Source: Azolla caroliniana
Taxonomy: Eukaryota; Plantae; Polypodiophyta
Direction: 5' to 3'
NCBI GenBank assembly: GCA_043228905.1
Contig: JBHGNT010000009.1
Span: 17,670,001-17,734,000, forward strand
DNA length: 64,000 nucleotides
The translations under genes and the position numbers were made by a program. Positions 7,634-61,789 of the stretch are shown here, piece after piece. The notes beneath the pieces were generated by a model. That model was not told the DNA's origin and did no database searches. It was given only the letters and a program-made list of their open reading frames with translations. Every line of letters starts with the position of its first letter. Positions within the stretch are counted from its first letter, which is position 1.

Positions 7634-8300
7634 TCGGGAAACAAACCCGGGTCTGTACCATCACAGGGTGTTATTGTACCATTAGACCACCGATGCACAC
7701 ATGTTCTCAATTACATATTTTACCCATAGACCCATTCATCAATCTAATATATTAGAACTATGCACAACCTATTTACATTGTCACTTCGATCAAAGGTTGA
7801 GGGATGCAATTTATTTGCGGTTTGCATCATTTCATTTGCCAAGGATAAAACCCGAGTCTATAGAATAAGAGAGATGTATTACTCCACTAAAGCACCAATG
7901 AATATGGTGTTGGTTAAAATAGTTTCTCACCTACGGAGAATAGTAATCTAATTTCTTGATGGCCAAACTATTTATCCTTGAAATATATAGTGCACATGTT
8001 TGGATCAATTCGTTTGCCGAGGACAAAACCCGAGTCTATAGAATCAGAGGGATCTATTACTCCACTATAGTACCAATGAATGTTTTGTTGGTTAAATAGT
8101 TTCACACCTACGGAGAATATTATTCTAACTTTTTGATGGCCAAATTATTTATCCTTGACCTTCTCTATCTTATTCCACCAAGCAATAACAACCACTTATG
8201 TAATCCACTATATGTGGTCTCTCAATTAGTGAAAATGCCTCAAATCCTATATCCGGGAATGACATGTCGGCACATAGTGATATGCACATGTTTTGATTCA

Positions 8301-8371
8301 TGCATTGGCCGGGAATTGAACCCGGGTCTGTACCGTGGCGGGGTACTATTCTACCAATAGACCACCAATGT
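8301..8371 (-). tRNA. tRNA-Gly-GCC: tRNA-Gly(GCC), probably a pseudogene
   Basis: Matches plant tRNA-Gly-GCC but has G1>A, a D-loop change and U33>C. Confidence 0.6.
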
Positions 8372-9325
8372 ACACATAGTGTTCTTAATGCATAGTGTAC
8401 CAATAGACCTATTTATGAATTTAATCTTTTTAAACTATGCACATCTTATTAACATCGTGCATTCGGTACCAGCTTGTGCGATGCAATTTTATTTTGTGAG
8501 ATATAGTTCACGTGTTTGGATCGGTTCATTGGCCGGCGACGAAACCAAGGTTTGTAGAATGGGAGGGATCTATTCTTCCACTAAAGAACCATACCGTGTG
8601 GTATTAGTTAACTCGTTTCTAACGTGCAAAGAATATTATTCTAAATTTCTAACGGCCAAACCATTTTTCGTTGACTTTCTCTATCTCATTCTAACAAGAA
8701 ACAACAAGCACTTATGTAATCCACTATATGTAGTCTCTCAATTGGCAAAGTTGTCTCAAATACTATATGAGGGAATGACATGTTGCCACAAAGTGATATG
8801 CACATGTTTGGATTCATACATTGGCCGGCAAACAAACACGGGTCTCTACCATCGCTGGGTGCTATTCTACCACTAGACCACAAAATCATCTCAATTACAT
8901 ATTTTACCCATAGACCCATTCATCAATCTAATATTTTTGTATTATGCACAATCTATTTACATTGTCTGTTGGATCGAAGGTTCTGGGATGCAATTTATTT
9001 GCGTGAAATATATAGTGCACATGTTTGGATCAATTCGTCTGCCGAGGACAAAACCCGAGTCTATAGAATCAGAGGGATCTATTACTCCACTATAGTACCA
9101 ATGAATGTTTTGTTGGTTAAATAGTTACACACCTACGGAGAATATTATTCTAACTTTTTGATGGCCAAACTATTTATCCTTGACCTTCTCTATCTTATTC
9201 CACCAAGAAATAACAACGACTTATGTAATCCACTATATATGGTCTCTCAATTGATAAAAATGCCTCAAATCCTATATCCTGGAATGACATGTCGGCACAA
9301 AGTGATATGCACATGTTTTCATTCA

Positions 9326-9396
9326 TGCAGTGGCCGGGAATTGAACCCGGGTCTGTACCGTGGCAAGGTACTATTCTACCACTAGACCACCAATGC
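9326..9396 (-). tRNA. tRNA-Gly-GCC: tRNA-Gly(GCC), acceptor-stem mismatch
   Basis: GCATTGGTGGTCTAGTGGTAGAATAGTACCTTGCCACGGTAC...GGTTCAATTCCCGGCCACTGCA. Confidence 0.7.
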
Positions 9397-10367
9397 ACAC
9401 ATAGTGTTCTCAAGTGCATAGTGTACCAATAGACCTATTTATGAATTTAATCTTTTTAAACTATGCACATCTTATTTACATCGTGCATTCGGTAGTAGCT
9501 TGTGCCATGCAATTTTCTTTGGTGAGATATAGTTCACCTATTTGGATGGGTTCATTAGCCATCAACGAAACCCAGGTTCGTAGAATTGGAGGGATCTATT
9601 CTTCCACTAAAGAACCATACCGTGTGGTATTAGTTAACTCGTTTCTAACGTGCAAAGAATATTATTCTAAATTTCTAACGGCCAAACCATTTTTCGTTGA
9701 CTTTCTCTATCTCATTCTAACAAGAAACAACAAGCACTTATGTAATCCACTATATGTAGTCTCTCAATTGGCAAAGTTGTCTCAAATACTATATGAGGGA
9801 ATGACATGTTGCCACAAAGTGATATGCACATGTTTGGATATGCACATGTTTGGATTCATACATTGGCCGGCAAACAAACACGGGTCTCTACCATCGCTGG
9901 GTCCTATTCTACCACTAGACCACAAAATCATCTCAATTACATATTTTACCCATAGACCCATTCATCAATCTAATATTTTTGTATTATGCATAATTTATTT
10001 ACATTGTCTGTTGGATCGAAGGTTCTGGGATGCAATTTATTTGCGTGAAATATATAGTGCACATGTTTGGATCAATTCGTCTGCCGAGGACAAAACCCGA
10101 GTCTATAGAATCAGAGGGATCTATTACTCCACTATAGTACCAATGAATGTTTTGTTGGTTAAATAGTTTCACACCTACGGAGAATATTATTCTACCTTTT
10201 TGATGGCCAAACTATTTATCCTTGACCTTCTCTATCTTATTCCACCAAGAAATAACAACGACTTATGTAATCCACTATATATGGTCTCTCAATTGATAAA
10301 AATGCCTCAAATCCTATATCCGGGAATGACATGTCGGCACAAAGTGATATGCACATGTTTTGATTCA

Positions 10368-10438
10368 TGCAGTGGCCGGGAATTGAACCCGGGTCTGTAC
10401 CATGGCAGGGTACTATTCTACCACTAGACCACCAATGC
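10368..10438 (-). tRNA. tRNA-Gly-GCC: tRNA-Gly(GCC), acceptor-stem mismatch
   Basis: A and B boxes and anticodon stem intact; 3' acceptor strand reads CCACTGC. Confidence 0.7.
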
Positions 10439-11393
10439 ACACATAGTGTTCTCAAGTGAATAGTGTACCAATAGACCTATTTATGAATTTAATCTTTTTA
10501 AACTATGCGCATCTTATTTACATCGTGCATTCGGTAGTAGCTTGTGCCATGCAATTTTCTTTCGTGAGATATAGTTCACCTATTTGGATGGGTTCATTGG
10601 CCATCAACGAAACCCAGGTTCGTAGAATGGGAGGGATCTATTCTTCCACTAAAGAACCATACCGTGTGGTATTAGTTAACTCGTTTCTAACGTGCAAAGA
10701 ATATTATTCTAAATTTCTAACGGCCAAACCATTTTTCGTTGACTTTCTCTATCTCATTCTAACAAGAAACAACAAGCACTTATGTAATCCACTATATGTA
10801 GTCTCTCAATTGGCAAAGTTGTCTCAAATACTATATGAGGGAATGACATGTTGCCACAAAGTGATATGCACATGTTTGGATTCATACATTGGCCGGCAAA
10901 CAAACACGGGTCTCTACCATCGCTGGGTGCTATTCTACCACTAGACCACAAAATCATCTCAATTACATATTTTACCCATAGACCCATTCATCAATCTAAT
11001 ATTTTTGTATTATGCATAATCTATTTACATTGTCTGTTGGATCGAAGGTTCTGGGATGCAATTTATTTGCGTGAAATATATAGTGCACATGTTTGGATCA
11101 ATTCGTCTGCCGAGGACAAAACCCGAGTCTATAGAATCAGAGGGATCTATTACTCCACTATAGTACCAATGAATGTTTTGTTGGTTAAATAGTTTCACAC
11201 CTACGGAGAATATTATTCTAACTTTTTGATGGCCAAACTATTTATCCTTGACCTTCTCTATCTTATTCCACCAAGCAATAACAACCACTTATGTAATCCA
11301 CTATATGTGGTCTCTCAATTGGTAAAAATGCCTCAAATCCTATATCCGGGAATGACATGTCGGCACAAAGTGATATGCACATGTTTTGATTCA

Positions 11394-11464
11394 TGCATTG
11401 GCCAGGAATTGAACCCGGGTCTGTACCGTGGCAGGGTACTATTCTACCACTAGACCACCAATGC
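11394..11464 (-). tRNA. tRNA-Gly-GCC: tRNA-Gly(GCC), apparently intact
   Basis: Full cloverleaf with one G-U pair in the T stem; T5 run 65 nt downstream (11324-11328). Confidence 0.85.
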
Positions 11465-12419
11465 ACACATAGTGTTCTCAAGTGCATAGTTTACCAATAG
11501 ACCCATTTATGAATTTAATCTTTTTGAACTATGCACATCTTATTTACATCGTGCATTCGGTAGTAGCTTGTGCCATGCAATTTTCTTTCGTGAGATATAG
11601 TTCACCTATTTGGATGGGTTCATTGGCCATCAACGAAACCCAGGTTCGTAGAATGGGAGGGATCTATTCTTCCACTAAAGAACCATACCGTGTGGTATTA
11701 GTTAACTCTTTTCTAACGTGCAAAGAATATTATTCTAAATTTCTAACGGCCAAACCATTTTTCGTTGACTTTCTCTATCTCATTCTAACAAGAAACAACA
11801 AGCACTTATGTAATCCACTATATGTAGTCTCTCAATTGGCAAAGTTGTCTCAAATACTATATGAGGGAATGACATGTTTCCACAAAGTGATATGCACATG
11901 TTTGGATTCATACATTGGCCGGCAAACAAACACGGGTCTCTACCATCGCTGGGTGCTATTCTACCACTAGACCACAAAATCATCTCAATTACATATTTTA
12001 CCCATAGACCCATTCATCAATCTAATATTTTTGTATTATGCACAATCTATTTACATTGTCTGTTGGATCGAAGGTTCTGGGATGCAATTTATTTGCGTGA
12101 AATATATAGTGCACATGTTTGGATCAATTCGTCTGCCGAGGACAAAACCCGACTCTATAGAATCAGAGGGATCTATTACTCCACTATAGTACCAATGAAT
12201 GTTTTGTTGGTTAAATAGTTTCACACCTACAGAGAATATTATTCTAACTTTTTGATGGCCAAACTATTTATCCTTGACCTTCTCTATCTTATTCCACCAA
12301 GAAATAACAACGACTTATGTAATCCACTATATATGGTCTCTCAATTGATAAAAATGCCTCAAATCCTATATCCGGGAATGACATGTCGGCACAAAGTGAT
12401 ATGCACATGTTTTGATTCA

Positions 12420-12490
12420 TGCATTGGCCAGGAATTGAACCCGGGTCTGTACCGTGGTAGGGTACTATTCTACCACTAGACCACCAATGC
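12420..12490 (-). tRNA. tRNA-Gly-ACC: tRNA-Gly variant with ACC anticodon
   Basis: Identical to the copy at 11394 except that the plus strand reads GGT at 12456-12458. Confidence 0.75.
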
Positions 12491-13445
12491 ACACATAGTA
12501 TTCTCAAGTGCATAGTTTACCCATAGACCCATTTATGAATTTAATCTTTTTGAACTATGCACATCTTATTTACATCGTGCATTCGGTAGTAGCTTGTGCC
12601 ATGCAATTTTCTTTCGTGAGATATAGTTCACCTATTTGGATGGGTTCATTGGCCATCAACGAAACCCAGGTTCGTAGAATGGGAGGGATCTATTCTTCCA
12701 CTAAAGAACCATACCGTGTGGTATTAGTTAACTCTTTTCTAACGTGCAAAGAATATTATTCTAAATTTCTAACGGCCAAACCATTTTTCGTTGACTTTCT
12801 CTATCTCATTCTAACAAGAAACAACAAGCACTTATGTAATCCACTATATGTAGTCTCTCAATTGGCAAAGTTGTCTCAAATACTATATGAGGGAATGACA
12901 TGTTGCCACAAAGTGATATGCACATGTTTGGATTCATACATTGGCCGGCAAACAAACACGGGTCTCTACCATCGCTGGGTGCTATTCTACCACTAGACCA
13001 CAAAATCATCTCAATTACATATTTTACCCATAGACCCATTCATCAATCTAATATTTTTGTATTATGCACAATCTATTTACATTGTTTGTTGGATCGAAGG
13101 TTCTGGGATGCAATTTATTTGCGTGAAATATATAGTGCACATGTTTGGATCAATTCGTCTGCCGAGGACAAAACCCGAGTCTATAGAATCAGAGGGATCT
13201 ATTACTCCACTATAGTACCAATGAATGTTTTGTTGGTTAAATAGTTTCACACCTACAGAGAATATTATTCTAACTTTTTGATGGCCAAACTATTTATCCT
13301 TGACCTTCTCTATCTTATTCCACCAAGAAATAACAACGACTTATGTAATCCACTATATATGGTCTCTCAATTGATAAAAATGCCTCAAATCCTGTATCCG
13401 GGAATGACATGTCGGCACAAAGTGATATGCACATGTTTTGATTCA

Positions 13446-13516
13446 TGCATTGGCCGGGAATTGAACCCGGGTCTGTACCGTGGGAGGGTACTATTCTACC
13501 ACTAGACCACCAATGC
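13446..13516 (-). tRNA. tRNA-Gly-CCC: tRNA-Gly variant with CCC anticodon
   Basis: Intact Gly-GCC body; plus strand reads GGG at 13482-13484. Confidence 0.8.
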
Positions 13517-14471
13517 ACACATAGTACTCTCAAGTGCATAGTTTACCCATAGACCCATTTATGAATTTAATCTTTTTGAACTATGCACATCTTATTTACA
13601 TCGTGCATTCGGTAGTAGCTTGTGCCATGCAATTTTCTTTCGTGAGATATAGTTCACCTATTTGGATGGGTTCATTGGCCATCAACGAAACCCAGGTTCG
13701 TAGAATGGGAGGGATCTATTCTTCCACTAAAGAACCATACCGTGTGGTATTAGTTAACTCGTTTCTAACGTGCAAAGAATATTATTCTAAATTTCTAACG
13801 GCCAAACCATTTTTCGTTGACTTTCTCTATCTCATTCTAACAAGAAACAATAAGCACTTATGTAATCCACTATATGTAGTCTCTCAATTGGCAAAGTTGT
13901 CTCAAATACTATATGAGGGAATGACATGTTGCCACAAAGTGATATGCACATGTTTGGATTCATACATTGGCCGGCAAACAAACACGGGTCTCTACCATCG
14001 CTGGGTGCTATTCTACCACTAGACCACAAAATCATCTCAATTACATATTTTACCCATAGACCCATTCATCAATCTAATATTTTTGTATTATGCACAATCT
14101 ATTTACATTGTCTGTTGGATCGAAGGTTCTGGGATGCAATTTATTTGCGTGAAATATATAGTGCACATGTTTGGATCAATTCGTCTGCCGAGGACAAAAC
14201 CCGAGTCTATAGAATCAGAGGGATCTATTACTCCACTATAGTACCAATGAATGTTTTGTTGGTTAAATAGTTTCACACCTACGGAGAATATTATTCTAAC
14301 TTTTTGATGGCCAAACTATTTATCCTTGACCTTCTCTATCTTATTCCACCAAGAAATAACAACGACTTATGTAATCTACTATATATGGTCTCTCAATTGA
14401 TAAAAATGCCTCAAATCCTATATCCGGGAATGACATGTCGGCACAAAGTGATATGCACATGTTTTGATTCA

Positions 14472-14542
14472 TGCATTGGCCGGGAATTGAACCCGGGTCT
14501 CTACCGTGGCAGGGTACTATTCTACCACTAGACCACCAATGC
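14472..14542 (-). tRNA. tRNA-Gly-GCC: tRNA-Gly(GCC), one anticodon-stem mismatch
   Basis: 3' side of the anticodon stem is GGTAG instead of GGTAC; otherwise intact. Confidence 0.7.
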
Positions 14543-14892
14543 ACACATAGTGTTCTCAAGTGCATAGTATACCAATAGACCTATTTATGAATTTAATCTT
14601 TTTGAACTATGCACATCTTATTTACATCGTGCATTCGGTAGTAGCTTGTGTGATGCAATTTTCTTTCGTGAGATATAGTTCACCTATTTGGATGGGTTCA
14701 TTGGCCATCAACGAAACCCAGGTTCGTAGAATGGGAGGGATCTATTCTTCCACTAAAGAACCATACCGTGTGGTATTAGTTAACTCGTTTCTAACGTGCA
14801 AAGAATATTATTCTAAATTTCTAACGGCCAAACCATTTTTCGTTGACTTTCTCTATCTCATTCTAACAAGAAATAACAAGCACTTATGTAAT

Positions 14893-14893
14893 C

Positions 14894-14927
<34 letters not shown>

Positions 14928-15237
14928 AGGACACATTGTTTTTAAAATTCTATGAATACTCTGTGTCATTTGTACAACGCGCTCATTAGCGCTATTTATA
15001 CAAGTCCACACGGGACTGTTAGGAGATCGGTGTACTTCAATGCTCACATGAGCATCTGACACTAACTACGAGACTATAGCTGCGTAGTAGTCTAGCCTAT
15101 ACTAGGCTTGCGGTTACAAATTTGATCCGGCATACCGGCTCCCCAGCTCACCGGTCCTTACTGCTTACCGGCTCGGTTGTTCACCAGCGTACCGATTCAT
15201 CTCGCTTACCGGCTCCGGTTTAGCTTGCCACTCAACA
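14893..15237 (-). repeat. copia 3' LTR (truncated by ~60 bp)
   Basis: Aligns to 20202-20546; starts inside the GA microsatellite. Confidence 0.88.
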
Positions 15238-20546: not shown

Positions 20547-22796
20547 ATAGTTTACCAATAGACCCATTTATGAATTTAATCTATTTGAACTATACGCATC
20601 TTATTTACATCGTGCATTCGGTAGCAGCTTGTGCGATGCAATTTTCTTTCGTGAGATATAGTTCACGTGTTTGGATTGGTTCATTGGCTGGCGACAAAAC
20701 CCAGGTCTGTAGAATGGGAGGGATCTATTCCTCCACTAAAGAACCATTGCATGTTGTATTAATTAACTCATTTCTCACGTAAAGAGAATATTATAAAAAA
20801 AATTTGATGGCCAAACCATTTTTCGTTGACTTTCTCTATCTTCTTCTAACAAGAAATAACAAGCATTTATGTAATCCACTATATGTAGTCTCTCAATTGG
20901 CAAAGTTGTCTCAAATACTATATGAGGGAATGGCATGTTGCCACAATGTGATATGCACATGTTTGGATTCATACATTGGCCGGGAAACAAACACGTGTCT
21001 GTACCATCACATGGTACTATTCTACCACTAGACGACCAATGCACACATGTTCTCAATTACATATTTTACCCATAAACCCATTCATTAATCTAATATTTTT
21101 GAATTATGCACAATCTATTTACATTGTCTATTTGATCGAAGGTTGTGGGATACAATTTATTTGCGTAAAATATAGTGCACATGTTTGGATCAGTTCATTT
21201 GCCGAGGACAAAACCCGACTCTATAGAATGGGAGGGATCTATTACTCCACTAAAGCATCAATGAATGTGGTATTGGTTAAATTGTTTCTCACCTACGGAG
21301 AATATTAGGCCAAACCATTTATCCTTGACCTTCTGTATCTTATTCCACCAAGAAATAACAACCACTTATGTAATCCACTATATGTGGTCTCTCAATTGGT
21401 AAAAATGCCTGAAATCCTATATGAAGCAATGACCTATCGGCACAGACTAATATGTACATATTTTGATTCATGCATTGGCCAAGAATCGTACCTGGGTCTG
21501 TACCGTGGCAGGGTACTATTCTACCACTAGACCACCAATGAACACATAGTGTTCTCAACTGCATAGTTTACCAATAGAGTCATTTATGAATTTAATCTTT
21601 TTGAACTATGCACATCTTATTTACATCGTGCATTCGGTACCAGCTTGTGCGATGCAATTTTATTTTGTGAGATATAGTTCACGTGTTTGGATCGGTTCAT
21701 TGGCCGGCGACGAAACCAAGGTTTGTAGAATGGGAGGGATCTATTCTTCCACTAAAGAACCATACCGTGTGGTATTAGTTAACTCGTTTCTAACGTGCAA
21801 AGAATATTATTCTAAATTTCTAACGGCCAAACCATTTTTCGTTGACTTTCTCTATCTCATTCTAACAAGAAACAACAAGCACTTATGTAATCCACTATAT
21901 GTAGTCTCTCAATTGGCAAAGTTGTCTCAAATACTATATGAGGGAATGACATGTTGCCACAAAGTGATATGCACATGTTTGGATTCATACATTGGCCGGC
22001 AAACAAACACGGGTCTCTACCATCGCTGGGTGCTATTCTACCACTAGACCACAAAATCATCTCAATTACATATTTTACCCATAGACCCATTCATCAAGCT
22101 AATATTTTTGTATTATGCACAATCTATTTACATTGTCTGTTGGATCGAAGGTTCTGGGATGCAATTTATTTGCGTGAAATATATAGTGCACATGTTTGGA
22201 TCAATTCGTTTGCCGAGGACAAAACCCGAGTCTATAGAATGGGAGGGATCTATTACTCCACTATAGTTTCACACCTACGGAGAATATTATTCTAACTTTT
22301 TGATGGCCAAACCATTTATCCTTGACCTTCTCTATCTTATTCCACCAAGCAATAACCACTACTTATGTAATCCACTATATGTGGTCTCTCAATTGGTAAA
22401 AATGCCTGACATCCTATATTACGGAATGACATGTCGGCACAAAGTGATATGTACATGTTTTGATTCATGCATTGGCCGGGAATTGAACCCGGGTCTGTAC
22501 CATGGCAGGGTACTATTCTACCACTAGACCACCAATGCACACATAGTGTTCTCAAGTGCATAGTTTACCAATAGACCCATTTATGAATTTAATCTTTTTA
22601 AACTATGCACATCATATTTACATCGTGCATTCGGTAGCAGCTTGTGCGATGCAATTTTCGTTTGTGAGATATAGTTCACGTGTTTGGATCGGCTCATTGG
22701 CCGGTGACGAAACCGAGGTTTGTAGAATGGGAGGGATCTATTCTTTCACTAATGAACCATAGCATGTGGTATACGTTAACTCGTTTCTGACGTACA
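20547..22796 (-). repeat. tRNA-Gly-derived tandem array segment
   Basis: Same units; tRNA-like heads at 20972, 21471, 21988 and 22468. Confidence 0.95.
22468..22538 (-). tRNA. tRNA-Gly-GCC: tRNA-Gly(GCC), apparently intact
   Basis: All stems pair; only a C38>T change in the anticodon loop. Confidence 0.85.
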
Positions 22797-22802
22797 TTGT
22801 AT

Positions 22803-24610: not shown

Positions 24611-25532
24611 TGAGTCCAGCCAAAATAGGAGCCGTTTGGTTGGACAGCAGCCCTAGATCTGTACAGCCCATTAGTGGTTCCATTCCCTCCAAGCAAGTTA
24701 GCAATGTGTTCCTAACCCAAGTCATTGTTAGTACTAAAAGTACTCCCCCAGTACCCGTCCTAGCACTTTTAGATTCCAGAGCTAATTCCTGTTTCATGGA
24801 TCGAAATTTTGCCCAAGCTTCTCAGATATCCTTAAGAAAACTTCCTTGTCCCGCATCTGTAGTCATTGATGGTCGTCCCATTGCTTCCGGGAATATTGTA
24901 GAAGAATTAGAACCCATTCAAGTTGTCCTAGGTAGCTTTGTGTGTGTAGTATCATTTAATATAATTAGTAGTCCAGAGCATCCCATTGTCCTAGGATTAC
25001 CTTGGTTTGAATTACATAATCCAGCCATAGATTGGAGAACAAGAGAAGTCCGATATCGACCACCCCAAGAATCTACTCACCAAGTTTCGACCATTTCACT
25101 CCATCAATTACGCGAAGAAGGACACAAGGAGGCAATGTCCCTATTTGCAATATCAGTACATCCTTCCAGCACTATTAAGAAGGACTCCTCAGTACAACTT
25201 CCGGCAAAATATCATCCTTATGCCAATGTATTTGACAAAGTAAAAGCCGGTACCCTTCCTCATCACCGTCCCTATGACTGTCCCATTGATTTACAACCAG
25301 GAACCGAGCCACCATGGGGACCAATTTACAACTTGTCACCCACCGAGTTAGAAGTCCTTCGAGCCTACATAGAGGAGAACTTGGCAAGCGGGTTCATCCG
25401 TCATTCGAAATCTCCGGCCGGTGCACCCATCTTCTTTGTCAAGAAGAAAGATGGCTCACTTCGTCTCGTCGTTGATTACCGCGGATTGAATAAGGTCACC
25501 ATCCGGAATAGGTATGCACTTCCTCTTATATC
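24610..25532 (+). pseudogene. pol: chromovirus pol, 5' part (protease, start of RT)
   Basis: [46 protein letters not shown]. Confidence 0.92.
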
Positions 25533-26031
25533 TATTGTATGTTTTTAGGGTTAGGGTTAAGGATGATGATAATCATGATAAAGATAGACATGGCGGTTAT
25601 GATGATGATGGAGAGTATGGGATTGATGGCGAGAGAGATCATGTGCATTGAGAAGCATTGCGGGGTGGGGGGTGGTGCCTAGAATGGCTCCACCCCCCTC
25701 CCAAGGGGATTCAACATTGAGGGGGAGAGAGAGAGAAAGAGAGAGAGAGATTGAGAGAGAAAATGATCATTCATGTTTCATTCATTCCCCATAAGGGGTT
25801 AAATAGTACAAGAGGGGGTAGATACATAGGGGTGTAAGCCCCATTGAGCATTCATACTGGACAGTCACTCACACCTCCTCATATCCATCCACATGCACAC
25901 ACGTGTGCATGTGTTCACATACGTATAGACTCACAACTACATTTATACCCCCTACACATACACAACATCATGATAACATTCGACCCTCGCTCATCACACT
26001 TGACTCTCCGTACATCTTGTACAGGGTAACA
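25533..26031 (-). repeat. LTR (left copy)
   Basis: TATTGTATG...GGGTAACA; outer TG mutated to TA. Confidence 0.92.
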
Positions 26032-26036
26032 CAATA

Positions 26037-26052
26037 TGGCACGCCCGTGGGA
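26037..26052 (+). other. PBS-like site, tRNA-Arg(TCT) type
   Basis: TGGCACGCCCGTGGGA, 5 nt inside the left LTR; recalled complement of plant tRNA-Arg-TCT 3' end is TGGCACGCCCGGTGGGA. Confidence 0.75.
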
Positions 26053-27970
26053 AAGTGCCTTGCACGTCGATCCCACATGCCTTGATGATGATATTTCTTC
26101 GACCGGAATTTCCATCGGTCCTTTCATTGATCGACTCCCTCGATCAGAGTGCTTGACTCGAACATCTTTGTCGGTCAATGACTCTTCTACGACACGAACA
26201 TTCTCGTTCTGTCGACTTACGAACTTTGGTAACATCATTTGGGTCGTCAAAAAACATTGTATGTATGTGTGTTCTTCTTTATATCTTGTGAGTCACGTGT
26301 GGATCACATCCATTTCTTTTAGGTTGATGAGTTTTTGAAATTCCGTTGGTGCCTTTCAGTTTTGAAAATTCTAGTATGTACCCTCATGTTTTTAAAATTT
26401 TGCACATGCCCTTAGGTTTTTTTCGAAATTCCTTGGATGCTTTTTATCCTTCTCTTTTTCTCCCACTCTTTTTTCTGTTTTCTCTTCTTTCTCTTCCTGT
26501 ATGCGGATCTCGTCTTGTCTCTGTCAAAGACAGTTCTTGTTTCTCTCTTCTTCTTCTACGACCACCACTATTTCTTCGTTGTGTGTCCATTGCTTGTTCT
26601 ACGTCTGTCCATTGTTCAGCACATCCAATCATCGCCACTTCATCCGACAGCCTTCTTACAATCGCACCGCCGGTTCGGCCGCTCTAGCCGTTGTCTAGCC
26701 GCTCCCTATCGCCATCTCGGTCACCGTCTTTGTCCAACATGTCTCTATTTCCGTCTCTGGCTCCATTGTCGTTGTCGTCTCCATCTATTGTCGTTGGCTG
26801 ACTTCTCTATCGTCGTCAACGGCCTTGTTGGCCGAGGTTCATTGCTTGGCTGCTCTATTTGGTCTTCATACGGATGACGTTAGACTGCCGTTGTGGCCGT
26901 TGTTGTGTGGCCATTCAGGCTCTCTGGCTCCTGTCCGGCCGCTCCCGACCATTCTGTGCGCTCCGACTGTTGTCCGGTCAGTTTGGCCGCTCCGATTGTT
27001 ATCCGGATAGTTTGGCCGCTCTTCGTTTTCCGATCCGGTAGTCCTATTTGGCCCATTTTGACGTGTCTATAGCCGTTGCTCATCCGTCTTTGTTCGGGCC
27101 ATTCTGGACACTCCGGCCGTTTCTCCATCTCTGTCCCGTGTCGCCATTCTGGTTGTTATCGACCGTTCTTCCGCTCCTATCTGGCCACACCGGCTTCTCT
27201 TTTGCCGTTGTGCGGCCACATTGGCCACTTTTGTGCATTCTGGCCGCTTATCCGGATGTCTGTCCGTTGTCTTTTGGCTATGCGTCTAGTCCGTCTTCTC
27301 GGTCATCTGTCCGGTTCTTTCCTACCCGTTTTCGGTTGTGTCGCTTGAGTTTGTATGCTTCCTTTTCGCCTGGCCATTCGTCTCTGTCTGTGCTTGTGAA
27401 GTCTAGCTTGTCCGGTTGCCTCGTTTTGTTTTGATATTGTGTAGTTAGTCGTCCATGTCTTTTGGGCGTTGTCAATTTTTCTGGACTTCAATGTCTCGTC
27501 AACGACAGCGTCTCCTTCTCTGTCTACATTGGCCCGTCTATGTTAACCAACTTTGGGTCTGGTTCCGATTCCGGTTCCGACTCTCTCTGTGTTGCTTCGT
27601 TTGGAACCATCTCTCGTGCATTCTCAGCACATTTTGCCGGCCTCCGCTCCACACACTGCGTCTTCCACTGCAGTCTCCAGGTGGGCTTCTCTTTCCGGTC
27701 ATGATGGCGTTGGTTCCCTCTGCGTCGTTGTTTGTCCAGACGTGCATCTTGCACCACGCATTCAAAACACACACATTGTCGCTAACCGCTTTCGGAACCA
27801 CGCACATTGACACATTGACTCACACAAAACATTGTTTCCATTTCTGCATTCCTCCATAGATAACATCTTCACCGTCATTTTCACGTTTCGCTATCTCTTG
27901 CACTTAGTCGCTATGGTTTGCACATCCGCATATCATTCTTCAACTTCGTCTCCAAAGGGGGGTCGCCTTA

Positions 27971-27980
27971 GTGATCGCCA
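27971..27980 (-). other. PBS-like site, tRNA-Arg(TCG/CCG) type
   Basis: Reverse complement TGGCGATCAC, 5 nt inside the right LTR; can pair with a tRNA end GUGGUCGCCA using one G-U. Confidence 0.6.
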
Positions 27981-27985
27981 AAAGG

Positions 27986-28484
27986 TGTTGTATGTTTTTA
28001 GGTTTAGGGTTAAGGATGATGATCATCATGATAAAGATAGACATGGTGGTTATGATGATGATGGAGAGTATGGGATTGATGGCGAGAGAGATCATGTGCA
28101 TTGAGAAGCATTGCGGGGTGGGGGGTGGTGCCTAGAATGGCTCCACCCCCCTCCCAAGGGGATTCAACATTGAGGGGGAGAGAGAGAGAAAGAGAGAGAG
28201 AGATTGAGAGAGAAAATGATCATTCATGTTTCATTCATTCCCCATAAGGGGTTAAATAGTACAAGAGGGGGTAGATACATAGGGGTGTAAGCCCCATTGA
28301 GCATTCATACTGGACACTCACTCACACCTCCTCGTATCCAGCCACATGCACACACGTGTGCATGTGTTCACATACGTATAGACTCACAACTACATTTATA
28401 CCCCCTACACATACACAACATCATGATAACATTCGACCCTCACTCATCACACTTGACTCTCCGTACATCTCGTACGGGGTAACA
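27986..28484 (-). repeat. LTR (right copy)
   Basis: TGTTGTATG...GGGTAACA. Confidence 0.92.
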
Positions 28485-31141
28485 ATATCAAGTCTTTTAG
28501 AGTGAGTTAATGGTGCCAAGTTTTTCACCAAAATCGATCTACGAGGAGCGTATAACCTCGTGTGGATCCGACCGGGAGATGAATGGAAGACCGCCTTTCG
28601 CATGCGGTATGGGCATTTCGAGTATACTGTTATGCCGTTCAGCCTAACCAATGCACCCGCAGTCTTCCAACACATGGCAAATGATATATTAAGAGACCTC
28701 TTGGATATCTGTTTGATCATCTATCTGGATGATCTACTGATTTATTCGAAGACCCAAGAAGAGCACGATTCTCATGTACTATTAGTACTAAAGTGACTCC
28801 GCGAGAATGGTCTTTATGCCAAGCTAGAAAAATGTAGCTTTGACTGCAACCAAGTGGAATTTCTAGGCTACGTCATCTCCTCAAAGGGCATCGACATGGA
28901 TCCAGCTAAAGTCCAAACTGTACTAGAGTGGCAAATTCCACGGTCGGTACGAGATGTACAATGTTTTCTAGGTTTTGTTAACTTCTACTATAAGTTTATA
29001 CAGGATTACTCGAAGATTATTTTACCTCTCACAAAACTTACGAAGAAGGGACAAACATTTCTTTGGTCCAATGAAGCAGATATGGCTTTTCGGCATCTTA
29101 AGAAAGCCTTTACATCAACACCGATTCTAGCTCATGTGGATACAAGCAAACCATTCATCATGGAGGCCGACGCATCAGATTTCGTCCTCAGGAGTATCCT
29201 TTCTCAACAAGGAGATAAAGAAGAGTTACATCCTGTGGCTTTCCATTCGCGCAAATTCGATGTCGCGGAAATGAACTATGAAATACATGACAAGGAGTTA
29301 TTAGCCATCGTGGATTCATTTGTGCAATGGCGGCATTTCTTAGAGGGCTCTCCACATCAGGTCATTGTCTTTAGTGATCATAAAAATCTTGCTTATTTCC
29401 AGAACGCCCGCATACTAAATCGACGGCAAGCTCGGTGGGCACAATTCCTCATGCATTTCGACTTCAAAATCACATATCGATCGGGGAAGCAGCAAGGAAA
29501 AGCAGATGCACTATCACGGCGTTCATATCTTGCACCTCGTCCTGGAGATCCAGCATTTGATAATCAAAAGCAAGTAATCTTGGGACCAACACGATTGCAC
29601 ACGACACGGATTTTTCACACCCCGATGGATTCACAGATTACCGATCACATACGTGCAAACTTGAAGACGGATAGTTTTGCTCAAGACATCCTGGCGCACA
29701 TTGATACTTCTCGGGCATCCTGTTCTCAGTCTCAACAACTAGGTATTGACTACCAACAATTCGAATATCATGATGGTTTGTTATTCTTTAAAAAGCGTGT
29801 ATATGTCCCCGATTGCTCCTGTCGCCTTCAAATCGTCAAGAATTGTCACAACACCCATACGGCGGGACATTTCGGTAGTACTAAGACGTTGGAGCTAGTG
29901 CAACGATCTTTTTGGTGGCCCCACATGCGCCGTTTTTTCGACGACTACGTTCGGACCTATGATGCTTGTTGCCGAGCAAAGATGCCACGACACCATCCAT
30001 ATGGCTTGTTGGAACCCTTACCGATTCCAAGTAAGCCGTGGCAGTCTATTTGTCTTGATTTTATCACAGATCTGCTGATCTCGAAGGGGTTCGATGCTAT
30101 CTTAACCGTCGTTGACCGATATACGAAGATGGCATATTTTGTGTCGTGTACTAAGGCCATCACTAGCGAGGAAACCGCCGCCCTTGTCATGCGTGAGGTA
30201 TTTCGGCATCATGGCCTCCCAAACAGTATCATCAGTGACCGAGGACCGCAATTTGTCTCCAAATTTTGGCAGCATCTCTTCAAGATGCTCAAGGTCTCTT
30301 GCAACCTCTCCTCCGGCTACCATCCTCAAACCGATGGGCAGGCGGAACGAACAAACCAAACGCTAGAGCAATATCTCCGGTGTTTCCTGAGTTATCAACA
30401 GGACGATTGGGCCGAGATTCTCCACTTTGTGGAGTTTGCGTATAATAATGCTATTCACTCCTCGGCTCGGCTCTCCCCATTTTTCGCTTATACCGGTTTC
30501 CATCCTCGCTGGTCGGTGATCGACACCCCAGAGCTACCTACCAACCCTCGTGCAAGGATCATTTGGAGAGGCTATGCAAGATCCAGATGGATCTCTCTAC
30601 TCACCTTTGTCATGCTCAACACACACACACACAGAAGATTTATGTGGATCGTCATCGGATTCCCTCCTCTTTTGCCATCGGAGATCGAGTATGGCTCTTA
30701 CGTCGTCAAATCAAGACTACTCGACCGTGCTACAAGTTGGATTATCGACAACTCAGCCCTTTCCGTATTACGGGTAAGGTTAATGATATCACATTTCGCC
30801 TTGATCTCCCTCCGCAGGTTCAAATACATCCGGTTTTCCATTGTTCTCTTCTTGAACCTTATAAAGCAAACACCATTCCCAATCGTGTTACACCACCACC
30901 GCCCCCGCTGGAGTTGGACGTCGGCCCGGAGTATGAAGTTGCTGCCATCCTCGATTCCAAACTTGTTCACAACAACCTTTATTATTTGGCCAATTGGCTC
31001 AGTTATAGTCCGAGCGAACGTACTTGGGAACCCTTCGAGCATGTTGCCAATGCTCAGGATCTTCTTGCTGATTTCCACCGAAAGTATCCGAACAAACCAG
31101 GTCCACAATCAACACTGACTCATTCCACTCGTCGTCTTTAA
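28485..31141 (+). pseudogene. pol: chromovirus pol, 3' part (RT, RNase H, integrase, chromodomain)
   Basis: ORFs 28560-28796, 28854-31118 and 30563-31141; stop near 28794 and frameshift near 30550. Confidence 0.93.
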
Positions 31142-34206: not shown

Positions 34207-34947
34207 TGTTGTAGTGTATTCCACACACTACGTGAAAACCATAAAATAATATAACCGATTTAATTACATATAAATAAATAAAATAAGAATATCAAAATAT
34301 TTATCATGTGCATAGGGCAAGATTCAAACCCTATACCTCCATGTAGCCAAACCTCAACTTTACCATTATGCTACCTTATCTTTAGTGTTCTACAAATAGA
34401 TTTAATAACTATAAGTGCTTTATTTGCGCCTACCTTTATTAAAAGGTAAATCATGCATTTTTAGAGTGCGTGAATATTTTATAGAAAAACGCAAGCAACT
34501 AAAAAGTGACTCATGCACATCTAGTGTGCATGAGCACTATATTTAGCAAATAAAAGCAAGGATTAGAAAAGCATCACATGCACATTTAGTGTGCATGAAC
34601 ATATTAGAAAAAAAAGCATGTAGCTATGCTAAGACTCCCTCATCACTACATAAGGATGGGGAGCACAATGTAATAGGTGTGTGAAATATTTGGAAATTGG
34701 ATATATTTCCGAAAACACCAACCAATTAATATAATCGTGGGATTCACGAATTTTGCCATCTAAATTACTCTTATAATCTAAATATTGTTTTAAATACACT
34801 AAACTCGTGGGATTCACGAGATTGCTATCTTACTTCTCTTTATACCTATTCTTTACTAGCCTTATTTGTATTTTTCTTCCTCCTAGTCCAAAACCTCGAC
34901 GGTTCCCACCCGACTCACGCAACGATCCGGAGCCGAAAGGCACGACA
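34207..34947 (+). repeat. gypsy 5' LTR
   Basis: TGTTGTAG...CACGACA. Confidence 0.92.
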
Positions 34948-34951
34948 CAGT

Positions 34952-34968
34952 TGGTGAACCCGACGTGA
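34952..34968 (+). other. Primer binding site, tRNA-Trp
   Basis: TGGTGAACCCGACGTGA is complementary to the plant tRNA-Trp 3' end TCACGTCGGGTTCACCA. Confidence 0.9.
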
Positions 34969-35057
34969 AGGCGGGTGGCAAGGAGATGGAGAATCAACAA
35001 GAGGCGATGAACATGATGATGATGATGGTTGAGCGGATGCAATGAGAACAACGTGCG

Positions 35058-36533
35058 ATGTCGGAGATGAAGTCGGCCGTAGAGCGGCTTGTGCAACGAA
35101 ACGGGCAATTCAACGGAAATGATGTGTCACGCTATCTACATGACTACAAGACGGAGATGATGCGATGTGGAATACCGGAAAGATTGCAAGTGATATCTTT
35201 CAGTCGGGTAGCCACGGATGAGTTACAAGAAAGAATCTACAAGATACGGCAACAAAACCCAACATGGGGGTCCTTTGAAGGAGCTTTACGAGAGGCATAT
35301 GATTACGATAGACCAAAGGGACGAGATCGGCGAGAGTTTGATGAATGGGTGGCATCGGAGAAGACCCACCGAAGTGCAACACAAGCATTCCTAGAGTTCG
35401 AGCATCGTTTTGCTCGAATCTCGAAGCGGGAACAAAGATTGTTGGGGGAGGATAAAGTCCTAATGTTCGTAAAATCGATCGATCGAAAAGAAAGGATGGA
35501 CATCGGGATTGAACTCGAAGACGATGACTGTACGAATGGTCTTACCGAAGATTGGGCCGAAGTCCAAAGGGTATGCCGGAGACATGATGAGAGGAAGATG
35601 AGAATCTTGTCAACGACATGGCCAATGAAGGATGGTCGATTGAAGACAAACGATGGAGCCGATATGAAGGCCGAAATACAACATGATGGTGTGACGGAAG
35701 AGGGTGTAAAACAAGCTACCCTCTTGTCTTGCGAAAGAACAACGACGAAGGGTAAGGCCGATAACCCAAGTGTAGAAGAAGATTTCAGAATACAAGTGTC
35801 CGAAACATCGGGTGAAAAAGGGGTAAGCATAATTGATGTTTGCATAATTGATGCAGTGAAAGAGAGCAAGGAGGACTTGATTGAGGAGGTCACCACGAAA
35901 GATGACATCGAATCGAAGGTGGCTATGGACGAATCAACGACGGATGGCCATATCGAGACTTCCCCACCACTGATTCCAGAGACTCCGGCGGTTGAGTTCG
36001 AAAGGCAACGTGAGACCGAAGAGACGGAAGGTGGCGGAGAGAAAACAAAGGTCGAAGCCGATGCGTATGACGGAGAGAGAGCCAAGAATATGGCTATGGG
36101 TGAAACAACGGAGGATGATAATACCGAGGATTCCTACCCACTAATTCTAGAGACTTCAGCGGTTGTGTTCAAGAACCAACGTGAGACCGGAGAGACGGGA
36201 GGTGGCAGCAAGAAAGGTAAAGTCGGAAGCCGGTTCGGATGGAAGGTGATCCAGACGGGATTCCGATCCGAAAGAAAGCCGAACCGGGTAAAAGAGGATT
36301 CGATCGAAAGTCGACCCGAAAGAAAGCCGAACCGAAAGGAAGAGAATTCGACCGAAAAACGACACAAACGAAAGCCGAACCGGGCGAATGAGGATTTGGC
36401 CGAAAGACGAACCGAAAGAAAGCCGACTCGGATGGTTCGCAGTATCCGATCCGATTCGGAGCAAAGGTTCTCAACGAAAGGCAACGAGGATATGCACAAG
36501 TCAAAAGAGAACTGTGGGGAGTCGTGTCGGTGA
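35058..36533 (+). CDS. gag: gag-like ORF (491 aa) with acidic, repetitive C-terminal half
   Basis: Open 491 codons directly after the PBS; FNGNDVSRYL...TWGSFEGALREAY capsid-like pattern. Confidence 0.7.
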   Translation: MSEMKSAVERLVQRNGQFNGNDVSRYLHDYKTEMMRCGIPERLQVISFSRVATDELQERIYKIRQQNPTWGSFEGALREAYDYDRPKGRDRREFDEWVASEKTHRSATQAFLEFEHRFARISKREQRLLGEDKVLMFVKSIDRKERMDIGIELEDDDCTNGLTEDWAEVQRVCRRHDERKMRILSTTWPMKDGRLKTNDGADMKAEIQHDGVTEEGVKQATLLSCERTTTKGKADNPSVEEDFRIQVSETSGEKGVSIIDVCIIDAVKESKEDLIEEVTTKDDIESKVAMDESTTDGHIETSPPLIPETPAVEFERQRETEETEGGGEKTKVEADAYDGERAKNMAMGETTEDDNTEDSYPLILETSAVVFKNQRETGETGGGSKKGKVGSRFGWKVIQTGFRSERKPNRVKEDSIESRPERKPNRKEENSTEKRHKRKPNRANEDLAERRTERKPTRMVRSIRSDSEQRFSTKGNEDMHKSKENCGESCR

Positions 36534-38230
36534 TAAAATCGGATCGGGATTATTTGATCGGAGCCGAAGTGGTGATCGAGACGGATTGTCTTCCGATACT
36601 CGGGATGATGCGGTGTTGTACGATACCGGATGTAGTTATGCTAAGGTGGGTTGCATATGTCAAGTCGCTTAATCCGGAGGTTCGACACATCTCGGGGAAG
36701 GACAACGCGGTAGCGGATATGTTATCAAGGGCTCGGTTCGGAGACGACATAACCGAATTGGATAATGAAGAAGTTTCCGAAGACTACTTTGCGTAAGAGC
36801 ACATATAACGAGTGAATGTAATCCGAGAATTCCGGGAAGAAGAATACGAGGGAGAAAGTTTGATGATCGGAAAGATGTTACAAGAGGCCGAGGACTCAAC
36901 AAACGATAAAGGAAGAAGAGCCGAGATCCGAAGGAAGAAGAGGCAAGTCCAAAAGTTCTTCTTGGAAAACGGATTAATATGGAGGGCGCCGAAAAGACCG
37001 GATGGTATACCACTTCGAGTAGTCGGGACAAAAGAGCAACGAAACCGGATAATGTTCGAGTTTCACGAATCCGATTAGGCTGGACACCGAGGAACATGGG
37101 CAACATTTGTGAAGATCAAGCAAAAATATTGGTGGAAGAAAATGTACAAAGATGTCACGGAGTTCACGGAAAGCTGCGAGAAATGTCAAGTCTACTCCGG
37201 GGTTCGACATCGAGATGAGCTACATCCGACATTCTCACCGACAATCAACTTCAAGTGGATGGTCGACATAGTGGCCATGCTGACCGGGATCGGACAAAAG
37301 AAATACTTGGTATTAGCTCGGGAAGATCTCACGAATCAAGTAGAAGGTCGAGCGCTTCAGAGGAAAACGTGTTCCGCGGTATGCCAATTTCTTTTGGAGG
37401 AAGTATTTTGCAGGTACGGGTGCGTAGGACAAGTGATTGCGGACCGGGGAGAACTCGACTCGGACAAAGCTAGGGGATTCTTCGCCAAACACAGAGTTCG
37501 GTTAATGCTGACAACGGCATACAATCCGAAGGCCAACGGGAAAATCGAACGAGGACATAGTCCGATCGTGAAAGCACTTGCGAAGGCATGCGATGGAAAG
37601 GTGAAGGACTGGCCGCAGATGCTTCCATATGCACTATGGGCGGATCGGACGATGCATAGCTTCGTAACCGGTTACATGCCGGCAGAACTCATGACCAGAC
37701 AAGCACCGGTAATGCCGACGGAAACTGCGATTGCAACATGGACAGTGCTACCGTGGAAGGAAGAGATGAGCCGGGAAGAACTACTAGCGGTCCGGATATG
37801 ACAACTAGAGGGAAGACCGGCAGACATAGCGGAAGCAATACGCAGACAACAAGAAGCACGGTTCCGGAACAAAAGCCGGTTCGACACAAAGCACCGACTA
37901 CGACCGAGGAGGATTGAAGAAGGAGATTGGGTGATCGTCTATGACAGTAGTTTGGACCATCAACATACAACGATGCGGAAATTCGTGAAAAGGTGGTTCG
38001 GGCCATACGAGGTTCGGAAAGTCTTCGACAACGGAACGTACCGACTATCCGAGTTGGATGGAACAATACTATGAGTGCCTATAGCCGGGAAGCGGGTGAA
38101 GATTTTCAAGAAGCGGACCGACGACAAACCCTATGTGTTCCAAGCCAAGACCGACAACGAGGAGCAATCAGACGAAGACCACGGTGATGCGGAAAGCGAA
38201 GAAAGTGAAATACAACTCATAGTTGACATT
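36430..38230 (+). pseudogene. pol: gypsy RNase H (partial) and integrase pseudogene
   Basis: PIRFGAKVLNERQRGYAQVKRELWG, ETDCLP, DNAVADMLSR, CEKC, YNPKANGKIERGH, WFGPY; stops present. Confidence 0.9.
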
Positions 38231-38325
38231 AGGGGAGAATCAGAGGAAGCTTTGGGTGAAGACGGATATGAGGAATCGAGAACTTCGGCACATACCGGAG
38301 GATGTGCGGGTTCGGAGGGGGCGAG

Positions 38326-39066
38326 TGTCATAGTGTATTCCACACACTACGTGAAAACCATAAAATAATATAACCGATTTAATTACATATAAATAAATAA
38401 AATAAGAATATCAAAATATTTATCACGTGCATAGGGCAGGATTCAAACCCTATACCTCCACATAACCAAACCTCAACTTTACCATTATGCTACCTTATCT
38501 TTAGTGTTTTATAAATAGATTTAATAACTATAAGTGCTTTATTTGCACCTACCTTTATTAAAAGGTAAATTATGCATTTTTAGAGTGCGTGAATATTTTA
38601 TAGAAAAACGCAAGCAACTAAAAAGTGACTCATGCACATCTAGCGTGCATGAGCACTATATTTAGCAAATAAAAGCAAGGATTAGAAAAGCATCACATGC
38701 ACATTTAGTGTGCATGAACATATTAGAAAAAAAAGCATGTAGCTATGCTAAGACTCCCTCATCACTACATAAGGATGGGGAGCACAATGTAATAGGTGTG
38801 TGAAATATTTGGAAATTGGATATATTTCCGAAAACACCAACCGATTAATATAATCGTGGGATTCACGAATTTTGCCATCTAAATTACTCTTATAATCTAA
38901 ATATTGTTTTAAATACACTAAACTCGTGGGATTCACGAGATTGCTATCTTACTTCTCTTTATACCTATTCTTTACTTGCCTTATTTGTATTTTTCTTCCT
39001 CCTAGTCCAAAACCTCGGCGGTTCCCACCCGACTCACGCAACGATCCGGAGCCGAAAGGCACGACA
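38326..39066 (+). repeat. gypsy 3' LTR
   Basis: Follows GGAGGGGGCGAG; TGTCATAG...CACGACA. Confidence 0.92.
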
Positions 39067-43617: not shown

Positions 43618-45491
43618 CCGGGACACAAACACGGGTCTGTACCCTCACAGGGTGTTATTCCACCATTAGACCACCAATGCACACATGTTCTCAATTACAT
43701 ATTTTACCCATAGACCCATTCATCAATCAAATATATTTGAACTATGCACAACCTATTTACATCGTCAGTTGGATCAAAGGTTGAGGGATGCCATTAATTT
43801 GCGGTTTGCATCAATTCATTTGCCGAGGACAAAACCCGAGTGTATAGAATAGGAGGGATCTATTACTCCACTAAAGCACCAATGAATATGGTGTTGGTTA
43901 AAATAGTTTCTCACCTACGGAAAATATTATTCTAATTTTTTGATGGCCAAACCATTTATCCTTGACCTTCTCTATCTTATGCCACCAAGCAATAACAACC
44001 ACTTATGTAATCCACTATATGTGGTCTCTCAATTGGTAAAAATGCCTGAAATTTTATATGAGGGAATGACATGTCGGCACAAAGTGATATGTACATGTTT
44101 TGATTCATGCATTGGCCGAGAATCCAACCCGAGTCTGTGCCGTGGCAGGGTACTATTTTGCCACTAGACCACCAATGCACAGATAATGTTCTCAAGCGCA
44201 TAGTTTACCAATAGACCCATTTATGAATTGAATCTTTTTGAACTATGCACATCTTATTTACATCGTGCATTCGGTAGCAGCTTGTGCGATGCAATTTTTT
44301 TTCGTGAGATATAGTTCACGTGTTTGGATCGGTTCATTGGCCGGCGACGAAACCCAGGTTTGTAGAATGGGAGGGATCTATTCTTCCACTAAAGAACCAT
44401 AGCATGTGGTATTAGTTAACTTGTTTCTCACGTAGAGAGAATATTATTCTAAATTTCTCACAGCCAAACCATTTTTCGTTGACTTTCTCTATCTTATTCT
44501 AACAAGAAATAACAAGCACTTATGTAATCCACTATATGCAGTCTCTCAATTGGCAAAGTTGTCTCAAATACTATATGAGGGAATGACATGTTGCCCAAAA
44601 GTGATATGCACATGTTTGGATTCATACATTGGCCAAGAAACAAACACGGGTCAGTACCATCGCAGGGTGCTATTCTACCACTAGACCACAAATGCACACA
44701 TGTTCTCAATTACATATTTTACCCATAGACCCATTCATTAATCTAATATTTTTGAATAATGAACAATCTATTTACATTGTCTGTTGGATCGAAGGTTGTG
44801 GGATGGAATTTATTTGAGTGAAATATATAGTGCACATGTTTGGATCACTTCATTTGCTGATGACAAAACCCGAGTCTATAGAATGGGAGGGATCTATTAC
44901 TCCACTAAAGCATCAATGAATGTGGTATTGGTTAAATTGTTTCTCACCTATGGAGAGTCTTACGCCAAACGATTTATCCTTGACCTTCTCTATCTTATTC
45001 CACCAAGCAATAACAACCACTTATGTAATCCACTATATGTGGTCTCTCAATTGGTAAAAATGCCTGAAATCCTATATGAAGGAATGACCTATCGGCACAA
45101 AGTGATATGTACATGTTTCGATTCATGCATTGGCCGGGAATCGAAGGTTGTGGAATGCAATTTATTTGCGTGAAAAATATAGTGGACATGTTTGGATCAG
45201 TTCATTTGCCGACAACCAAGTCGAGTCTATAGAATGGGAGGGATCTATTACTCCACTATAGTACCAATGAATGTGGACTTGGTTAAATAGTTTCTAACCT
45301 ACGGAGAATATTATTCTAACTTTTTGATGGCCAAACCATTTATCATTGACCTTCTCTATCTTATTCCACCAAGCAATAACAACCACTTATGTAATCCACT
45401 ATATGTGGTCTCTCAATTGGTAAAAATGTCTGAAATTTTATATGAAGGAATGACATGTCGGCACAAAGTGATATGTACATGTTTTGATTCA

Positions 45492-45562
45492 TGCATTGGC
45501 CGGGAATCGAACCCGGGTCTGTACCGTGGCAGGGTATTATTCTGCCACTAGACCACCAATGC
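45492..45562 (-). tRNA. tRNA-Gly-GCC: tRNA-Gly(GCC), near intact
   Basis: Canonical GGTTCGATTCC B box; one D-loop change and one anticodon-stem mismatch. Confidence 0.72.
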
Positions 45563-48515: not shown

Positions 48516-48586
48516 TGCATTGGCCGGGAATCGAACCCGGGTCTGTATCATGGCAGGGTACTATTCTACCACTAGACCACCAATGC
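48516..48586 (-). tRNA. tRNA-Gly-GCC: tRNA-Gly(GCC), anticodon-stem mismatch
   Basis: Canonical B box; anticodon stem GTACC/GATAC. Confidence 0.65.
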
Positions 48587-58922: not shown

Positions 58923-58993
58923 TGCATTGGCTGGGAATTGAACCCGGGTCTGTACCGTGGCAAGGTACTATTCTACCACTAGACCACCAATGT
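58923..58993 (-). tRNA. tRNA-Gly-GCC: tRNA-Gly(GCC) pseudogene
   Basis: G1>A and a T-stem mismatch; boxes and anticodon retained. Confidence 0.55.
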
Positions 58994-61724: not shown

Positions 61725-61739
61725 TGTTTTGAGCACAGA

Positions 61740-61789
<50 letters not shown>

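Follow-up and report, generated by a model that had tools for sequence, protein, structure and literature searches.

In the 64,000-nucleotide stretch of Azolla caroliniana DNA analysed here (hereafter the window), a 2.95-kb long terminal repeat (LTR) retrotransposon at 25533-28484 carries a tRNA-Arg-type site just inside each of its LTRs, the two sites facing outward, and has no polypurine tract (PPT) beside either one. We conclude that these paired tRNA sites without a PPT are a real, conserved and unusual variant of the replication signals of LTR elements. We propose, with moderate confidence, that a plant LTR lineage has dropped the PPT and primes both DNA strands with host tRNA-Arg by way of interchangeable hairpin modules that can stand at either LTR end; the 3' site would be an inverted copy of the module that serves as primer-binding site (PBS), and non-coding passengers would keep both. 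The window element is a minimal non-coding member that retains the two sites, and the family carries a sign of module exchange between ends.

The element itself is a recently inserted, non-coding LTR retrotransposon. Its direct LTRs (25533..26031 and 27986..28484) align without gaps over 499 bp each with 10 mismatches (2% divergence) and have TG...CA ends, apart from a G>A change at base 2 by which the left LTR opens TA where the right LTR has TG. It is bounded by ATATC at 25528..25532 and 28485..28489, a target site duplication (TSD) within the 4-6 bp expected of LTR retrotransposons. The insertion interrupts a Tcn1-like chromovirus pol in register: residues 1-271 of the homolog P0013 run to 25533 and residues 270-959 resume from 28485. 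An earlier sequence-only reading of this DNA had claimed 499-bp LTRs and a clean ATATC TSD, and the split pol bears it out. The 1954-bp interior is without gag or pol coding: the three open reading frames scanned contained no Pfam domain, and no retroelement protein was matched. Its non-coding internal region (26078..27939) is A/G-rich on the minus strand and differs between copies; the best conserved interior block, 27501-27830, has indels of 1-2 nt and no codon periodicity. A hidden antisense reading frame in this block was considered and ruled out, the gaps being of 1-2 nt only and the substitutions numbering 105/101/104 by codon position. An Rfam search returned weak chance matches and nothing better.

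The right tRNA-Arg(UCG/CCG) site occupies 27971..27980 on the minus strand, where TGGCGATCAC starts at 27980, separated from the right LTR by a 5-nt spacer (27981..27985). Taken as an isolated motif, this sequence is a 9/10 variant that occurs in the 64-kb window at chance level (2 matches, 2.35 expected), and it is counted as real because of its position and its conservation. At position 27974, G stands in place of A in 22349 of the 22377 depth units of run X1, and runs X3, X4 and X9 behave likewise. Since nearly all of the depth reads G here, the family site is TGGCGACCAC, from which the window copy has decayed by one base. As a tRNA reference we used the Arabidopsis consensus table of PMC4535395 (supplement) with CCA appended, from which the host tRNAs may differ. 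Compared by eye with these tRNAs, TGGCGACCAC matches tRNA-Arg(TCG) and tRNA-Arg(CCG), which end in GTGGTCG before the added CCA, at 10/10 positions, and it is 3'-terminal in only two rows of the table, both Arg (the last of its three matches is internal in Lys). The same sequence has been read as Trp or Arg in human ERV9. Complementarity to a tRNA 3' end within a few nucleotides of an LTR, here established against Arabidopsis rather than host tRNAs, is what marks a PBS, and the right site is likely an ordinary minus-strand PBS. With 50-100 tRNA ends to match, a perfect 10-mer would arise by chance within 8 offsets of one given LTR end ~4-8 times in 10,000.

Conservation of this site was followed in a metagenome scan with the right motif, which returned 38 loci. 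Half of these (19) are copies of the family, with 15 distinct 100-nt contexts; the other 19 were GC-rich or repeat matches without element context and were rejected. Junction motifs found in viral contigs (0, 2 and 0 matches) and in genome contigs (2) were dropped as well, all four being without LTR context. Of the 19 family loci, 15 have a right spacer of 5 nt (one of these loci being cut immediately behind TGTT) and one has a spacer of 4 nt; in the other three the spacer could not be scored. Upstream of the right site, 13 of the 19 carry TTCGACTCC, which is identical to the T loop and the beginning of the T stem of Arg(TCG), and at 27940 every one has TCGACT where the window copy has TCAACT. 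The right junction is covered by contigs of four organisms (A, B, C and D), with minor variants of up to ~18% at the listed positions; the variant table for these organisms lists 27961-27968 only and omits 27974, so that it is no test of the 10-mer itself. The family is present at very high copy number (contigs of runs X1, X3, X4 and X9) and has close relatives in at least four organisms.

At the opposite end, TGGCACGCCCGTGGGA starts at 26037 on the plus strand, 5 nt inside the left LTR (spacer 26032..26036). It opens a 41-nt tRNA-Arg(UCU) module (26037..26077), complementary to the tRNA on the plus strand, which consists of box 1 (26037-26046), box 2 (26047-26052), a hairpin GTGC-CTT-GCAC (26055-26065) and box 3 (26067-26076). 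Read on the minus strand, the module agrees by eye with Arabidopsis (not host) Arg(TCT) plus CCA at 24/26 positions in three boxes, of which the part corresponding to the T stem and loop contributes 9/10, that corresponding to the T stem 6/6 and the acceptor end with CCA 9/10. A 14-nt insert, which contains the 4-bp hairpin, is not matched by the tRNA. The right and the left tRNA matches both stop at the 11th base from the tRNA end. Loose ends begin at 26034-26037 and at 26076-26077, which delimits 26037-26077 as a discrete module; families whose LTR ends and interiors are different share it. It also lies in the deepest depth bin of runs X1 and X3. A phage-contig tRNA-Arg(UCU) with the exact GGGCGTG end was found as well, which is illustrative only; a parallel scan for UCG gave 0 matches.

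Single elements with both sites facing outward are represented by the window copy and by loci L028 and L034, and in loci L009 and L017 one LTR is flanked by both sites, in tandem forms with a common LTR. The two sites are conserved while the sequence between them diverges, and the flanks of the left module are unrelated between families. These data agree with most of what the sequence-only reading had said of the sites. It had placed two outward-facing sites with 5-nt spacers in the window copy, where we find them; it had called both tRNA-Arg-type, as the matches to plant tRNA-Arg 3' ends confirm, with the provision that host tRNAs may differ from the Arabidopsis consensus; and it had named conservation of both motifs as a test, and both are kept among the copies. 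The symmetry of the spacers, on the other hand, is true of the window copy but is not a rule of the family: on the left, the window copy, L028 and L034 have 5 nt where L009 and L017 have 2 nt, and on the right the length is 5 or 4 nt.

A PPT abutting the LTRs is absent, as had also been claimed. In the 25 nt next to each LTR, purine runs reach no more than 3 nt at the left (minus strand) and 6 nt at the right (plus strand, formed by the last A of CCA and the spacer), so that no tract abuts the 3' LTR whichever of the two that is. Within 100 nt of the LTR that we infer to be 3', no purine run exceeded 7 nt and none was common to both subfamilies. By way of control, one gypsy and one copia element elsewhere in the window each have an ordinary PPT that abuts the 3' LTR. 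The element is probably transcribed from the minus strand. A TATA-like box lies on that strand at one aligned position in seven of eight LTR rows (CTATTTAA at 25799..25806 in the left LTR; 28252-28259 in the right LTR) and is followed by AATGAA (7/8) and a CT-rich tract, all of which are candidate promoter features. Such an orientation suggests that the right LTR is the 5' LTR and the left LTR the 3' LTR, that the right site is the ordinary PBS, that the left module stands in the position of the PPT, and that the G-run AAAGGGGGG, in a conserved hairpin module next to the right site (27940..27970, minus strand; G-run at 27954-27962 on the plus strand), is antisense.

We give about an even chance to the proposal that host tRNAs prime both DNA strands of the element. 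In this scheme, tRNA-Arg(UCG or CCG) would anneal to the RNA at 27980-27971 and start minus-strand DNA as in any LTR element. RNase H would then strip the RNA and leave the 41-nt module at 26037-26077 exposed on minus-strand DNA, where tRNA-Arg(UCU) would anneal around the small hairpin in the DNA, by its acceptor end and T arm, and prime the plus strand at a distance of 5 nt from the 3' LTR. The enzymes would be supplied in trans by an autonomous gypsy partner, presumably not a chromovirus. A non-coding element that has still transposed, as low LTR divergence and a clean TSD indicate, should keep the cis signals that it needs, and this one keeps both sites. Priming of both strands by tRNAs had been suggested in the sequence-only reading; the conservation of both motifs and their tRNA-Arg matches speak for it, but by sequence alone it is inseparable from priming by a tRNA-like RNA of the element's own.

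Several observations weigh against this proposal. An autonomous partner was found neither in the window nor in 44 loci, and among the 38 loci of the scan neither such a partner nor a retroelement protein lay beside the motif, except for a Tcn1-like flank in L018. Selection by the right motif means that the 19 family loci would not include copies in which it is absent, and as metagenome contigs they may be mosaics. Of the left junction only two sequence types are known, and left box 1 is one base off the Arabidopsis consensus. With regard to orientation, the TATA pattern was written after the sequences had been seen, and plus-strand TATA-like matches occur in two of the eight LTR rows, one of them at the same palindromic site. 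The G-run must be counted here too: CAAAGGGG, which lies outside the search pattern, is present in 19/19 family loci, so that the invariant AAAGGGGGG is not incidental, and at a second junction in L009/L017 it is the inferred sense strand that carries the run, in a AAAGGGGG version ~20 nt away from the LTR. Finally, the GGCAT beside the left module is kept in both subfamilies, is not derived from a tRNA and, in the RNA sense, pairs with the end of the module itself, as would suit a self-folding RNA.

The invariance of CAAAGGGG is what would be expected if the element were plus-oriented. The left module would then be the ordinary PBS and AAAGGGGGG a displaced PPT, 23 nt away from the LTR; some other role, for example in setting the RNase H cut, would fall to the right 10-mer. 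That the left module is the better tRNA match agrees with such an arrangement, as do C-to-T variants in the partner strand of the hairpin, which would leave G-U pairs on the plus strand (by eye). We nevertheless consider it very unlikely, given that the promoter features lie on the minus strand and that a PPT 23 nt away from the LTR would produce a long overhang. The G-run followed by TCG also resembles the tRNA T arm GTGGGTTCG at 7/9 bases (by eye), and the G-run module is found at the other LTR end as well. There, at the second junction of L009/L017, the hairpin module with the G-run (score 29-38 against a maximum of 21-24 in shuffles) has the UCU-type GGGCGTGCCA as its end. At 2 nt from this lies LTR sequence whose homology is to the opposite LTR end (score 174 against at most 41 in shuffles); further upstream there is no homology. 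This junction is a single locus in two contigs and could be an assembly mosaic. Because the G-run module serves both LTR ends with different tRNA-Arg 10-mers, the tRNA end appears to be the conserved thing and AAAGGGGG to belong to the module; a tRNA-binding site would be expected to show just such an exchange of one tRNA-Arg end for another in an unchanged context. The G-run module thus looks like part of a portable tRNA-site module. The sequence-only reading had allowed that AAAGGGGGG might be a displaced PPT, a caveat that the minus-strand promoter features and the second position of the module weaken.

The pairing of GGCAT bears instead on the main rival to priming by a second host tRNA, which is a primer encoded by the element itself. 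Its own RNA at 26077-26037 would mimic the 3' half of a tRNA, survive RNase H, be cut after CCA and prime the plus strand. An RNA of this kind would already be annealed at the right place, and the cDNA ends that it predicts are identical to those expected from a host tRNA. In the RNA sense the module folds into a T-stem-like helix closed by pairing of GGCAT with GTGCC (-19.2 kcal/mol). Compared with shuffled sequences, however, this fold is unexceptional (z 0.26, not better), and the module of L009 folds differently. Moreover, the primer must stay paired to DNA, yet its 3' end is concealed in this fold. At the same LTR end, the 10-mer is also present in a different hairpin module, and because of this we take the tRNA end, and not the fold, to be what is kept. 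We therefore regard a self-encoded primer as somewhat unlikely.

Second tRNA-related sites are known from other LTR elements (statements on PMC5371799, PMC1635307, PMC6317226, PMC10508981 and PMC13578239 refer, here and below, to portions of those texts). Yeast Ty3, whose PBS is bipartite, starts its plus strand at a PPT that immediately precedes U3 (PMC5371799), and in Drosophila Gypsy the second tRNA site contacts other tRNA arms and can be dispensed with (PMC1635307). The window element resembles Ty3 in its direct LTRs, its apparently tRNA-primed minus strand and its short acceptor-stem PBS with extra T-arm contacts (PMC5371799), but has a copy of a tRNA 3' end where Ty3 has the PPT. With Ty1, Ty3 and Gypsy it shares a second tRNA-related site near the 3' end of the genome, and with Ty1 a PBS split by a loop (PMC5371799, PMC1635307). 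Unlike the two-site binding of these elements, its second site is on the opposite strand, places CCA next to the LTR and corresponds to a different isoacceptor; lying on the opposite strand and covering the CCA end, it does not form a bipartite PBS of the Ty3/Gypsy kind.

These precedents raise the question of whether the sense tRNA copy is a structural signal of the RNA, acting in anti-PBS pairing, dimerisation, packaging or strand transfer, with other RNase H fragments serving as imprecise primers of the plus strand. Ty3 and Drosophila Gypsy do have non-priming second tRNA-related sites at the genome 3' end (PMC5371799, PMC1635307), in Gypsy the 5' site alone is indispensable (PMC1635307), and the 10-mer at the second junction of L009/L017 is the exact complement of a TGGCACGCCC PBS. 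The known Ty3 and Gypsy sites, however, lie on the RNA strand and are complementary to other regions of the tRNA, and none is a sense copy with a terminal CCA at 2-5 nt from the LTR. In addition, the two ends of the window element represent different isoacceptors and pair poorly together, and precise LTR ends require a precise primer end. A purely structural role is in our judgement quite unlikely. Related contigs L009 and L017 hold divergently arranged element ends, as might be expected if two 5' halves had been joined by chance into the window element, or if it were an artefact of assembly. We hold this to be extremely unlikely, since it is contradicted by direct LTRs that are 98% identical, by the clean TSD and by the split of the host pol in register; the same outward-facing pair recurs in L028 and L034, and copy depth is high.

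Priming of both strands by host tRNA-Arg would set the family apart from the plant elements that it otherwise resembles. REXdb lists a tRNA-Arg PBS for 89% of Ogre, 64% of TatIII and 30% of Retand elements, with a 5-bp TSD, and distinguishes three primer types for the minus strand, most LTR elements having one PBS and a PPT (PMC6317226). The window element is like the OTA elements (Ogre, TatIII, Retand, Athila) in its 5-bp TSD, tRNA-Arg PBS and long non-coding regions (PMC6317226). The combination of tRNA-Arg PBS and 5-bp TSD is typical of Tat but not unique to it, and the element has no pol by which it could be placed from its reverse transcriptase. The second, inverted PBS is a difference, none being described for OTA in the portions of PMC6317226 to which we refer. 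As to Tat papers, a term search of PMC13468544 showed that PBS, PPT and tRNA are not mentioned, and PMC10508981 treats protein domains. A search of the openly accessible literature, large supplements excepted, turned up no account in which an inverted tRNA site takes the place of the PPT. Terminal-repeat retrotransposons in miniature (TRIM) and large retrotransposon derivatives (LARD) are non-autonomous LTR elements, both of which normally keep a PPT. The window element resembles them in its absence of coding capacity, its conserved terminal cis signals and the LTR-sharing tandem forms of its relatives (L009, L017), but at 2.95 kb it lies between their usual sizes and is without a PPT.

For LTR retrotransposons and retroviruses, it is regarded as an almost universal rule that plus-strand synthesis starts from a PPT. 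Replacement of the PPT by a tRNA end in a successful lineage of high copy number would be a second solution, a statement that we consider probable because it holds whether the primer is a host tRNA or the element's own RNA. If plus-strand priming does proceed from such an end, the task of RNase H would be changed, replication would depend on two host tRNAs and both ends would be open to silencing by tRNA fragments. Annotation tools that orient or filter elements by their PPT would mishandle elements of this kind. A 3-kb non-coding copy that carries both sites would make a minimal test construct.

Further features of the family and of the window were noted. The part of the LTR that would be U5 (25661-25704 and 28114-28157) contains a conserved GGGGGGTGG...CCACCCCCC hairpin and telomere-like AACCCTAA repeats. 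The family copy in L018 is flanked by Tcn1-like integrase sequence, as is the element in the window, which may be chance in a repeat-rich genome. L026 (oriented position 124) and L028 (oriented positions 2059 and 3124) show junctions in which AACA and a 6-nt spacer are followed by TGGCGACCA, TGGTGACCAC or TGGCACACCA; these probably belong to other families or variants that use tRNA-Arg ends. L028 also contains, at 200-1310 of the oriented contig, a degenerate tandem tRNA-Pro array with a solo-like LTR of the element family immediately after it, which indicates that the organism has arrays of more than one tRNA type.

The window as a whole is a retroelement-rich plant region with tandem tRNA-Gly arrays. 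Among its other elements, a gypsy element at 34207-39066 has a 4-bp GCGC TSD (NCGN type), an ordinary PPT and a PBS starting TGGTGAACCC, which we take to be of tRNA-Trp type. Its TSD, PBS and PPT features are those that REXdb gives for Phygy, described there as Physcomitrella-specific (PMC6317226). Azolla has been reported to have >7500 tRNA genes (PMC13578239). The tRNA-Gly(GCC) arrays, with a unit of ~510-520 bp, lie at 7985-15000, 20550-22800, 43620-48880, 52000-53300 and 56400-64000 and comprise genes and decayed copies (16 ARAGORN calls, 30 core matches). Retroelement insertions break the arrays, and one array block alternates units of 509 and 517 bp.
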